From an uncultured virus (IMG/VR IMGVR_UViG_3300050138_000133) (taxonomy: Duplodnaviria > Heunggongvirae > Uroviricota > Caudoviricetes): DNA of 20,000 nucleotides. Below the pieces are notes generated by a model, which saw only the letters and a program-made list of their open reading frames with translations, ran no database searches and was not told the DNA's origin. The position numbers and the translations under genes are program-made. The stretch lies in the IMG/VR virus record IMGVR_UViG_3300050138_000133. The stretch is one strand, 5' to 3'. Each line of letters begins with the position of its first letter. Position 1 is the first letter of the stretch. Of the stretch, positions 2,593 to 11,026 are shown piece by piece.

Positions 2593-3072
2593 TTACGAGA
2601 TGCGGATGAGCGCCAGCGTCGATGAATTGGTCGGCAAAATAACGGTGAACGTGCCGGCGGCAACGGATTGAGTGCCGCCAAAATCGAAGGTGCCAACGGT
2701 GCGACCAGCGACTCCGGTGCCGGCGTCGGCCGTCGAGATCACCGCTGAGGTCGCGGAGAATGTCGCCGTCGTCCAATTCGGATTGACGGAGAATGACGTT
2801 ATGGCGACGCCGGATGATAGCGCGGGCGCGACATTGGTTAGCGCAAAGCCAAGCGTGGTATAACCGGCGCCAGAGACTTCGTCGGTGCCGACGTTACTGA
2901 CGGTCGGCGCGCTGCTGCCCGGAGTGCCGATATTGGCCAGCGTATTATCGTAGGTGCCGCCCGGCGTAACTTTGATGAGCAACATTTTGTAGGCAAGACC
3001 GCCGGTTTTAAAGTTGTGGCCACCTTCGAGGCAGGCGCGCTTGAAGTCTTGGCTGAGTGCGGTGGTGGCCAT
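2593..3072 (-). CDS. Conserved phage virion structural protein
   Basis: 159 aa. FKxxxLxGxHNF...EVSGAGYT...WTTATFSA...DFGG...GTFTV pattern seen in phage structural proteins. GGAG RBS. Confidence 0.75.
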   Translation of the reverse strand: MATTALSQDFKRACLEGGHNFKTGGLAYKMLLIKVTPGGTYDNTLANIGTPGSSAPTVSNVGTDEVSGAGYTTLGFALTNVAPALSSGVAITSFSVNPNWTTATFSATSAVISTADAGTGVAGRTVGTFDFGGTQSVAAGTFTVILPTNSSTLALIRIS

Positions 3073-3163
3073 GTTTCAGTCTCCCAAAATAAAAACTACG
3101 GCGCGCGCCGCGGCCGATATGATGACGATGATTGCGAGTGAGGGTTAGGAGACCAGACGAATG

Positions 3164-3592
3164 TCAGGCCGAGAGACGGGCTGCTGCCTTATGCACGTCA
3201 CGATGGACGTTCATCTGCGAGCGCGTTTCGTGTTCAAGTTCCTGCATGATCGCGGCCTGCACGTCGGCGCGCTCGAAATGCGCAGCCAAGCCGTGGCCCT
3301 CATTATACGAGGCCGCGACGATCTCTTTCAGAATCGCAGCATCGACAACCGCTGTCAGCGGGTGATCGTACCTAGCCGCGCCATGCTCCGCGAGTGCGGA
3401 CTGCTCAGAATTTTCAACATCTGTGTGATGCTTGACGAGAATAGCTTCGACCGCCTTACGGAAGGCGCGCGAGGCGTTGACAAGATCAATCGGGGCATTC
3501 TCGCCAACTACAACGATTTTTTCGGCGGTAACTTCCGCGTGGAAGTCGGCGGGATGGAAATTGTTACCGTTCGTAATCATGACGCGGGTCAT
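3164..3592 (-). CDS. Hypothetical phage protein (alpha-helical)
   Basis: 142 aa, AGGAG RBS upstream, co-oriented with the operon. Confidence 0.75.
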   Translation of the reverse strand: MTRVMITNGNNFHPADFHAEVTAEKIVVVGENAPIDLVNASRAFRKAVEAILVKHHTDVENSEQSALAEHGAARYDHPLTAVVDAAILKEIVAASYNEGHGLAAHFERADVQAAIMQELEHETRSQMNVHRDVHKAAARLSA

Positions 3593-8961: not shown

Positions 8962-9162
8962 CTATTTCAGTTTCAGCGTTGGCTTGTTCTGATTAGTCGA
9001 TTTCACCACGGGTTCTTCCGGCGCAATCTCGGCCTTTTCTTCGGGCTCATCCGATCGTTTCTGCATCTTGATGGATTGCAGCAATTCCCGCAAATACCGC
9101 GCGCGCGGTGATTCGTATTCGGCATCGCCCTTGGCGAGATAATCTTTTCCTGCTTGCATCAT
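8962..9162 (-). CDS. Small charged hypothetical protein
   Basis: About 66 aa starting MMQAGKDY. ATG at 9162 overlaps the upstream TGA (ATGA). The track start at 9171 is less likely. Confidence 0.65.
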   Translation of the reverse strand: MMQAGKDYLAKGDAEYESPRARYLRELLQSIKMQKRSDEPEEKAEIAPEEPVVKSTNQNKPTLKLK

Positions 9163-10346
9163 TTCCAGCACTCTTCCGGGACACCGTTCTGTTGAAAATC
9201 AGTCATTGACTGATAGTGAACATTCAAATTGATGTCGGGCCATCGCGCCATAAGCTCGGCATGGCCAATTGCAACGCGATTTGCGAGATGGAGCGAATTG
9301 CCGGCGGTTTCCCACTTGCGCCAAAATTCGATGTCTTCATCGATATGACCTTCATTCCAGTCTAGATCTGGAGACGGCACGGACTGAAACCACGGCTTCG
9401 CCATCTTCTTAAGCGCCGCTGTTCTGATCAGCGTAAGCCCGAAGTGCGCGGTTGAAACCTGAGAGGTATCACCTTCGAATCGAGTGCGCGGAATGGTCGG
9501 CGCATTCTTTTCCGCTGAATCGTCTCGAACCGTGAACAGTGCCGTATTTAGATGGCGCGATGATTGGATGGGCGCTAGTGCATCAATGTCAGGGTAAAGG
9601 CACATTAGCTGCATGAGATGCGCCAGATGGCGGGGCAGGAAAACAGAATCGTAATCGATAGTAAGGATCGCGTCCGGATCATCTTCCTCGATGATCCGTT
9701 CAAATACCTTGGTCATCGACTGGCCCCAGAAGGCACCGCCGTGTTTTCGCAACTTCACATGACAAGGAAGGCACGCTTCCATGCAACTGAAAAAATTATC
9801 GGTGAAAGTAAGTCTCGGCATGCTCATCGCGCCGGAGACATTGATCTCCGGCATATGAGGCTTGTACGCCTCCAGGTTCAGCGAGATCGGATAAGCAGCG
9901 CAGTCCTCGATTTCCGAAACCCATGGCCGGATTAGAACTAGACCCTGGCCGGCGAGTAATGCCCGCAATTTGTCGCGATCGAACATCGCCTTGTGGTAAT
10001 CGTTCTGGTCGACCTGGCCGCCCATCATGTACATTTCATGAGGCTGCGCTTTGCCGTTCAGATAATCCTCCGCAATCGTTTTGAAATCTGGAACGGCGAT
10101 CTTGAGTTTGCCGCCCTTCTTGAGAGCGCGAACCCAATCCTTCAGGACCGCTTCTACCTGGCGGTGCGGGAAATGTTCGAGGACGTGAGAGGCAACAATT
10201 TCGTCAACCGATCCATCGGCGTAGGGCAGCGGATATATCTCAGACCCGTAATCTCTGCCGAGCGGAATGAAACTGGGGCGCGCAATTTCGCCTGCGCCTA
10301 AATCAAGTTTAATCTCAAATTTCGGAAGCGTAGCTTCGATATGCAT
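9159..10346 (-). CDS. Class I SAM-dependent methyltransferase fused to a GT-A (GT2-like) glycosyltransferase
   Basis: 395 aa. N-half has LDLGAG, LPYADGSVDEI, SHVLEH and RALKKGGKLKIAVPD. C-half has a DxD motif (ILTIDYD), HFGLTLI, KPWF, DEDIEFW and IGH. Confidence 0.85.
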   Translation of the reverse strand: MHIEATLPKFEIKLDLGAGEIARPSFIPLGRDYGSEIYPLPYADGSVDEIVASHVLEHFPHRQVEAVLKDWVRALKKGGKLKIAVPDFKTIAEDYLNGKAQPHEMYMMGGQVDQNDYHKAMFDRDKLRALLAGQGLVLIRPWVSEIEDCAAYPISLNLEAYKPHMPEINVSGAMSMPRLTFTDNFFSCMEACLPCHVKLRKHGGAFWGQSMTKVFERIIEEDDPDAILTIDYDSVFLPRHLAHLMQLMCLYPDIDALAPIQSSRHLNTALFTVRDDSAEKNAPTIPRTRFEGDTSQVSTAHFGLTLIRTAALKKMAKPWFQSVPSPDLDWNEGHIDEDIEFWRKWETAGNSLHLANRVAIGHAELMARWPDINLNVHYQSMTDFQQNGVPEECWK

Positions 10347-10352
10347 TTGTTG

Positions 10353-10439
10353 CCCTTGTCGGAGGGGATCGATGGAGATGGACCGACATCCATCTCCATC
10401 TATTCAGCGCTGAGGTCTCATTCCGCTGTCGGGCAGAAT
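10353..10439 (-). promoter_or_regulatory. Candidate structured cis-regulatory RNA leader: three hairpins with complementary hexaloops
   Basis: mRNA sense: AUUCUGC-CCGACA-GCGGAAU (10439-10420); GAUGGAGAUGGA-UGUCGG-UCCAUCUCCAUC (10400-10371); CCCU-CCGACA-AGGG (10366-10353, covers the RBS). Confidence 0.6.
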
Positions 10440-10447
10440 TGGACGCG

Positions 10448-10918: not shown

Positions 10919-11026
10919 GGGTGCCCTCCTTGGGCAAAGAGATAGTGAACGTCGCCGTATCCGCTGAATTGCGGCCACGTCGTTATGTCGTCTTTAGGCA
11001 ATTGCCCTTGGGACAGGATTGCGAGG

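Follow-up and report, generated by a model that had tools for sequence, protein, structure and literature searches.

Related systems and the element in the window

Among described systems, the c4 antisense RNA of the immI operon of phages P1 and P7 is the nearest in logic to the RNA element reported here, a set of three hairpins lying between two late genes in a 20,000-nucleotide (nt) stretch of DNA from an uncultured tailed phage (IMG/VR record IMGVR_UViG_3300050138_000133; the whole stretch is hereafter called the window). Citron and Schuster reportedly found in 1990 that c4 has sites both at the downstream ribosome-binding region and upstream, and that compensatory base changes alter specificity between the phages. 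Both c4 and the window element are encoded by phages and have short hairpin loops that can pair with the ribosome-binding region of the gene that follows in the transcript. However, c4 is a processed, trans-acting immunity RNA that uses two loops and regulates an antirepressor, whereas the element has a single such loop, is found in late structural operons and includes a palindrome. One published account describes the C4 antisense RNA as needed for full ant repression, with a binding site ahead of icd (PMC8198154).

The second point of comparison is translational coupling by RNA unfolding, as in MS2 coat-lysis, E. coli rpmI-rplT and genes VII-IX of phage f1, where terminating ribosomes remodel the structure of a downstream ribosome-binding site over spacers of tens of nt, the rpmI-rplT spacing being +52 nt (PMC12548453). 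Those cases involve direct helices between an upstream region and the ribosome-binding site, in contrast to the loop-loop relay that we propose here over about 100 nt, the direction of which may be negative. Kissing complexes such as TAR-TAR*, ColE1 RNA I/RNA II, the HIV-1 dimerisation site and phi29 pRNA are found in replication-control, genome-dimerisation or packaging RNAs and not in mRNA spacers. The element can be likened to them by analogy, given its six-nt, fully complementary loops and a GC-rich self-complementary sequence that resembles the dimerisation site. An open-access library, searched for a prior description, yielded nothing on this motif. The element is a new, widespread phage RNA motif and a candidate for a new Rfam family.

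In the window, the element fills the 101-nt spacer 10447-10347, between a gene that we call gpX and a gene for a methyltransferase fused to a glycosyltransferase. Its parts, hairpins 1 to 3 (HP1 to HP3) and a palindromic tract, are as follows.

10439-10420, minus strand: HP1, a 7-bp stem ATTCTGC / GCGGAAT with one U·G pair and the loop CCGACA at 10432-10427
10413-10404, minus strand: self-complementary tract TCAGCGCTGA, between HP1 and HP2
10400-10371, minus strand: HP2, a perfect 12-bp stem with the loop UGUCGG at 10388-10383
10366-10353, minus strand: HP3, a stem CCCU / AGGG with the loop CCGACA at 10362-10357, its 3′ arm resembling a Shine-Dalgarno (SD) sequence

HP1 begins 8 nt past the gpX stop codon, HP2 is followed by GAUCCCCUCC, and the AGGG of HP3 ends 6 nt ahead of the ATG at 10346-10344. 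The hairpin coordinates, stems, loops, palindrome and AGGG-ATG distance had been given by a first-pass annotation made from these letters alone, and every detail is correct when read on the minus strand. Folding of a 121-nt stretch gave z = -3.0, with one of 200 shuffled sequences folding equally well, and the minimum-energy fold contains HP1 and HP2 while the bases of HP3 are paired otherwise. The opposite strand of the element folds nearly as well (z = -2.7), and the loop hexamer occurs 20 times on both strands of the 20 kb against 11.6 expected, a mild enrichment, with three occurrences within 76 nt. Because the opposite strand folds almost equally and the hexamer is only mildly enriched, the window sequence taken alone is suggestive and not decisive.

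Homologous copies

Relatives of the two flanking proteins were used to find copies of the element with no requirement on the loops. For the downstream protein 34 loci were retrieved, and among the nine that were aligned (the window and eight close relatives) the element was present in eight; L009, a relative of the methyltransferase-glycosyltransferase gene, has no element upstream. For gpX there were 30 loci, and 19 of the 22 at 54-99% identity have the element. At the same place after gpX, two relatives without it (L073 and L076) have a GC-rich hairpin followed by a pyrimidine/T-rich run, and the sequence of another (L072) ends too early to judge. Eight distant gpX relatives (L080-L087, 37-40% identity) show a different long GC-rich nested hairpin with T runs at about 2850-2960, followed by a gene for a glycosyltransferase only; since they share the gene order with another hairpin, the order of gpX then glycosyltransferase would be older than the element. 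The copies found through these neighbouring proteins make up alignment A2, with 19 distinct sequences.

The wider set was assembled from pattern scans of viral contigs and from a covariance model, R1, and comprises at least 42 distinct copies on contigs of uncultured phages. The pattern scans demanded the loops or the palindrome, and the filters demanded complementarity between HP2 and HP3. One reverse-strand match (L255) was excluded as spurious, and the counts given below exclude a model-fitted alignment (A5) that mixed in reverse-strand matches. Searches elsewhere returned little: a metagenome scan with a loose pattern gave no meaningful score among the first 100 listed loci (L088-L187), its sole hit scoring 19.8 bits; a regular-expression search found the element in none of 117 metagenome-scan loci; genome contigs scanned with the gpX alignment yielded a single distant relative, from a metagenome-assembled genome of Planctomycetota; and when relatives were sought for the gene behind the tail-side copy, that gene alone was returned. 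The element is absent from Azospirillum phage Cd, a named phage that is related through its tail-tube gene. When the element region was compared by blastn with GenBank phages no match was found, and two element queries gave partial matches only (E = 0.09-0.3).

Two further loci are of interest in their own right. L070 has a decayed copy at 2990-3081 (23.6 bits) right after gpX and an intact copy at 3183-3276 (88.9 bits) about 190 nt further on; the two copies flank a small open reading frame (ORF), an arrangement which resembles an insertion at the element. In EBPR siphovirus 3 (JF412298; L401, 3511-3720, between gp11 and gp12), the spacer between tube and chaperone genes has a canonical terminator, after which UGUCGG is found as the loop of a 6-bp hairpin; some 85 nt further along, CCGACA caps an 11-bp hairpin that immediately precedes an SD sequence and ATG. 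This arrangement looks like a looser version of the same loop pair and was missed by the covariance model.

Covariation of the stems and the folded strand

The stems of the element covary. In A2, 97.2% of 644 cells are paired compared with 82.8% in shuffled alignments, both sides change in 21 of the 35 pairs, and none of 500 shuffles reaches any of these measures; when the partners are slid by 1-3 columns, pairing falls to 30-47%. Compensatory pairs are found in all three hairpins, 5/7 in HP1, 11/13 in HP2 (where 100% of cells are paired) and 3/4 in HP3. RNAalifold, unaided, recovered the same three hairpins with 22 pairs, 17 of them with compensatory change. In the HP3 stems of the 42 copies, 154 of 168 cells are Watson-Crick and four are G·U.

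The strand is decided by HP2. Its 11 pairs next to the loop comprise, over the 42 copies, 417 Watson-Crick, 41 G·U, no A·C and four other cells out of 462. Read on the antisense strand or as a duplex, every G·U becomes an A·C mismatch, and given that A·C is zero, the sense strand is the one that is folded, as the first-pass annotation had held in placing the RNA on the mRNA strand. All 42 copies are oriented like their flanking genes. The median energy of HP2 is -25 kcal/mol, which makes it a very stable hairpin. It is the comparison that is decisive: a genuine folded RNA with three covarying hairpins is present on the mRNA strand, and its homologues keep the loops and their complementarity.

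The 41 G·U against no A·C on the sense strand, together with stems that vary freely while pairing is kept, make it scarcely credible that the element is a DNA-level feature in which three hexamers and a palindrome act as protein sites or mark a recombination or cassette junction, even though CCGACA and TGTCGG are the same motif on double-stranded DNA, coordinated changes would fit an altered motif, and the element borders a variable gene slot (in L070 the decayed and intact copies flank a small ORF), given also that orientation and ATG distance are fixed and that one record carries two copies with different hexamers and palindromes, which speaks against one binding protein.

Complementary loops and a record with two copies

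The loop of HP2 can pair with those of both neighbours, as had been noticed in the window: all 19 copies of A2 have complementary loops in HP2 and HP3, and between HP1 and HP2 the loops are complementary in 98% of cells. The set CCGACA / UGUCGG / CCGACA is found in 40 of the 42 copies, and in each of the two non-canonical copies all three loops have changed together. Both exceptions come from a single record, G003, whose first copy (L004) reads CCCACA / UGUGGG / CCCACA and whose second (L211) reads CCGAAUA / UAUCGG / CCGAUA. As judged from these two independent, coordinated triple changes, loop complementarity is under selection. Scans that freed each pair of loop positions in turn gave no further loop variants among the matches listed.

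Of the 20 records to which R1 was applied, only G003 has two copies on the sense strand; four near-complete records (90-100% complete) have one copy apiece, and a weak extra R1 hit in G006 is not an element. The cognate loop duplexes of the G003 copies are predicted at -8.4 and -5.9 kcal/mol, and the cross pairs between copies at -1.0 and -2.5 kcal/mol. The divergence of the loops in G003 thus looks like avoidance of cross-talk between the two copies. It also argues against one protein that reads all loops, because the copies carry different ones.

In six of the 42 copies, located before different genes, CCGAC stands directly ahead of the ATG and gives CCGACAUG, so that in those copies a fourth CCGACA lies over the start codon. 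The HP2 loop is complementary to the downstream ribosome-binding region and covaries with it between phages, as would be expected of a c4-type antisense sequence.

Position at the start codon and the flanking genes

All 42 copies have an ATG at a distance of 9-17 nt from the HP3 loop, on its 3′ side. The purines that form the 3′ arm of this hairpin, always AGGG, GAGG, AAGG, AGGA or GGAG, lie 5-13 nt before the ATG and are paired with a pyrimidine arm of anti-SD character, so the observation that SD-like purines of the window are part of HP3 near the ATG extends to the whole set; SD purines in a conserved stem at initiation distance are what a leader hairpin that sequesters the SD would have. 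On the other side, the distance from the best upstream stop codon to HP1 was measured in 36 copies; it is 1-13 nt in 31 of them and 17, 39, 40, 43 and 68 nt in the other five. HP1 and HP2 are separated by 19-30 nt, a spacing at which they should be able to kiss, and HP2 and HP3 by -3 to 10 nt with a median of about 2; the HP2 stem has 9-13 bp and that of HP3 about 4 bp.

The downstream genes belong to at least five unrelated families; small ORFs and genes of unknown kind also occur there. The identified kinds are given below.

Methyltransferase-glycosyltransferase
GDP-mannose 4,6-dehydratase (PF16363, E = 3.9e-115 and 4.1e-143)
Tail assembly chaperone (phrog_313)
Acb3 (PF25187, E = 4.9e-80)

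Upstream are gpX, a tail tube protein (PF18906) or small ORFs. On this distribution the element is tied to the start codon and not to a gene family, and it is often located at the step from an abundant structural gene to a low-copy gene. Three contigs (L284 185-988 on the minus strand, L297 and L301) have the element directly before a gene of the Acb3 family, an inhibitor of the cyclic-oligonucleotide-based antiphage signalling system (CBASS); the E value given for Acb3 is that of L284, L297 and L301 being assigned by their similar N-termini only.

These neighbours bear on the first-pass annotation's suggestion that the RNA controls an enzyme that uses S-adenosylmethionine (SAM). A riboswitch for SAM, S-adenosylhomocysteine (SAH) or a nucleotide sugar that controls the methyltransferase-glycosyltransferase would fit the window and most close relatives, which have a SAM-dependent methyltransferase domain downstream, and a sugar-related theme can be seen among the head-side copies, others of which precede a GDP-mannose dehydratase. 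However, tail assembly chaperones, Acb3 and unknown genes are also preceded by the same element, as are small ORFs, and L009 keeps the gene without the element. The conserved unpaired bases are limited to the mutually complementary loops and the palindrome, with no obvious pocket, and no Rfam riboswitch matched. The annotation had itself recognised no SAM-II, SAM-V or SAM-SAH consensus, in agreement with the covariance models of Rfam 15, C4 antisense RNA included, which found no match in the whole window and none in 12 related loci; in the 301 nt around the element the only model listed was a snoRNA, which scored 9.3 bits (E = 8.1) where 54 is the gathering score. A riboswitch is therefore very improbable, and the idea of the element as a metabolite sensor for a SAM-using enzyme is corrected.

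The palindromic tract

Forty of the 42 copies have a perfect self-complementary tract of 8-16 nt that ends 10-16 nt before the HP2 loop; the other two (L305 and L359) have tracts of 12-14 nt that include G·U pairs when read on the sense strand. The 42 copies show no fewer than 10 different palindrome cores, and the centre of the palindrome is also self-complementary, which a plain hairpin does not need. The predicted duplex energy of the window tract is -17.3 kcal/mol. Where the palindrome is longer, the prediction has the tract folding on itself into a small hairpin. The conserved self-complementarity points to pairing of two RNAs, or to a loop that kisses its own kind.

Proposed mechanism

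The reading that we favour, while holding it at somewhat below even confidence, is that the element is a portable, cis-acting translational attenuator that sets protein ratios within one transcript, in line with the control of translation that the first-pass annotation had suggested. In the ground state, the HP1 loop would kiss the HP2 loop, HP1 being a decoy that keeps the antisense loop occupied. Since HP1 begins a few nt after the upstream stop codon, ribosomes that terminate there would melt it, free HP2 and shift the balance of states. The freed HP2 loop would act as a built-in antisense against the CCGACA next to the SD, probably forming a pseudoknot in which HP3 is open, and in some phages it could also pair with the further CCGACA that overlaps the AUG; this pairing would hinder 30S binding. 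Heavy translation of an abundant upstream structural gene could thereby hold down a low-copy gene downstream. The direction of regulation is a guess and the least certain step; repression is favoured because the downstream genes are of low copy and the target overlaps the AUG in some phages.

The geometry of the pairing departs from what the first-pass annotation had drawn. It had proposed two mutually exclusive kissing or pseudoknot states, and the complementarity which this requires is present. A kiss between HP2 and HP3 within one molecule with both stems standing is nonetheless sterically implausible, because in A-form geometry the hairpins lie too close, at a median spacing of about 2 nt. 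Pairing between HP2 and HP3 is more likely to occur as a pseudoknot with HP3 opened, or between molecules. In the pseudoknot of the coronavirus infectious bronchitis virus, 8-nt loops can span an 11-bp stem.

Several points weigh against an attenuator of this kind. The loop conservation in the set of 42 is partly by construction, because the scans and filters required the loops, the palindrome or the complementarity. Even so, the canonical loops (40/42) are kept far beyond the needs of pairing, and an unknown trans factor may be involved; either drift is slowed by the need for three simultaneous changes or something else reads the loops. The folding energy of the whole element does not separate the strands, the sense strand being the more stable in 20 of the 42 copies (p = 0.75). 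On its own HP3 has little stability (median -3.4 kcal/mol), and if a pseudoknot opens this hairpin the SD could be exposed instead of hidden. That gpX and the small ORFs upstream are highly abundant is an assumption. Finally, attenuation gives the palindrome no role, though it is selected as strongly as the stems.

The possible exposure of the SD leads to a serious rival, which we regard as unlikely but credible: a positive relay in which the terminating ribosome melts HP1, the HP2 loop captures the CCGACA of HP3 and opens it, and the SD is exposed, so that the downstream gene is translated only together with the upstream one. The position of HP1 1-13 nt after the stop in 31 of 36 copies suits such coupling as well as attenuation, the SD is paired in HP3, and HP2 and HP3 are too close to kiss with their stems intact, so that pairing should open HP3; the RNA-unfolding cases (PMC12548453) are a precedent. 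Yet in the six of 42 copies with a CCGACA over the AUG that sequence would be occluded by the same pairing, the 30S subunit may be hindered by a stable pseudoknot next to the SD, and an HP3 as weak as -3.4 kcal/mol (median) leaves little to unlock. The downstream genes are also of a kind needed in low amounts.

It is less probable again that the element serves to punctuate the mRNA, as a processing site, 3′-end stabiliser or partial terminator, in which case the overlap of HP3 and the SD would be secondary. No U-tract stands behind any hairpin, and a terminator scan found no site in 10347-10447; moreover, the virion depends on genes located downstream, the tail assembly chaperone among them, and punctuation leaves unexplained the triple loop covariation and the fixed distance of 9-17 nt to the ATG (42/42). 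What recommends it includes the place itself, which in L073 and L076 is occupied by the GC-rich hairpin with its pyrimidine/T-rich run and in L080-L087 by another long hairpin, while in EBPR siphovirus 3 the equivalent spacer has a canonical terminator in addition to the hairpins with UGUCGG and CCGACA loops. The stability of HP2 (median -25 kcal/mol) and the C/U-rich tract that follows it are also consistent with a role of this kind.

Action between molecules, which would be compatible with an attenuator, seems rather improbable as the principal explanation. The tract would then pair two messages and the HP2 loop of one would kiss HP1 or HP3 of the other, or else a processed HP2 would be a trans-acting antisense. 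This would account for a tract kept self-complementary throughout, centre included, in at least 10 sequences, where the only two imperfect cases have G·U when the sense strand is read; in a simple hairpin the loop has no need to be palindromic, and the duplex energy of the window tract is -17.3 kcal/mol. The steric difficulty of an HP2-HP3 kiss in cis and the orthogonal loops of G003 point the same way. On the other hand, the longer palindromes are predicted to fold as a small hairpin, and the fixed place between stop and start codon favours a role in cis.

Genomic setting

The window is the structural module of a tailed phage, with every gene on the minus strand. The order of the genes, with coordinates for those discussed here, is as follows.

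Minus strand: small terminase
Minus strand: large terminase
Minus strand: portal
16170-15109, minus strand: capsid-family gene
14981-14058, minus strand: HNH endonuclease
14046-12718, minus strand: prohead protease-like gene
12585-11260, minus strand: major capsid gene
11206-11027, minus strand: small ORF, basic, 59 aa
10448..10918, minus strand: gpX, 156 aa from the ATG at 10918-10916
10447-10347, minus strand: three-hairpin element
9159..10346, minus strand: 395 aa, a class-I methyltransferase domain fused to a family-2 glycosyltransferase domain
Minus strand: head-tail adaptor
Minus strand: tail genes, including a protein with a glycosyl hydrolase family 71 (GH71) domain at 5197-3644

The ORF list gave gpX 176 aa from a GTG at 10978; the start at the ATG has an SD sequence and fits the MTVP... 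start of the homologues, and the stop codon is at 10450-10448. The gene comes after the major capsid gene in the module, and its product matched no family in Pfam or PHROG. Its predicted structure is an all-beta sandwich of low confidence (predicted local distance difference test 64), the model giving weak matches to jelly-roll or carbohydrate-binding-module-like folds (template modelling score about 0.44) and to small uncharacterised phage proteins. On this model, gpX could be a capsid surface protein and the target of the adjacent glycosyltransferase. The downstream protein was matched in Pfam by Methyltransf_11 (E = 1.4e-07) and Glyco_trans_2_3 (E = 3.1e-04), and in PHROG by methyltransferase.

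Another viral record, G001, has 81% of the sampled words of the window in common and an identical element. The sequence of the element is found in DNA contigs of peat and permafrost metagenomes, and no RNA sequencing run was among the matches listed. The capsid protein of the window has no named relative above 25% identity.

The two capsid-family genes, between which the HNH endonuclease and the protease-like gene stand, share 46% identity over 338 aa (E = 7e-103), and the one at 16170-15109 is missing about 90 N-terminal residues of the other. In the spacer between the capsid gene and gpX (11259-10919, minus strand), a hairpin (GGCTGGAG ... CTCCAGCC) comes directly after the capsid stop codon, and the 59-aa ORF also lies inside this spacer. 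The GH71 match in the tail region (517 aa, E = 8.1e-42) suggests that this protein may be a glucan-degrading tail enzyme.

Implications

In phage late operons, protein ratios of hundreds to one are obtained from a single transcript, and the means are known for few model phages. The element is a compact, sequence-defined module that uncultured phages, from soil and peat among other sources, place before unrelated genes, and its comparative support is unusually clear, with covarying stems, loops changed three at a time and a palindrome preserved in many different sequences. Control of a ribosome-binding site by competing loops could be tested on it directly, and it is a possible orthogonal part for tuning operon expression. 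In its fullest form our proposal is that a relay of decoy, antisense and target loops, together with the self-complementary tract, reads the ribosome traffic of the upstream gene and sets initiation at the downstream one, possibly by way of paired messages, that it is reused before unrelated genes, and that its loops diverge when two copies share a genome; taken as a whole this is doubtful. If such a relay is true, diverse phages would use the element as a ready-made setter of expression ratios before enzymes, chaperones and anti-defence genes.

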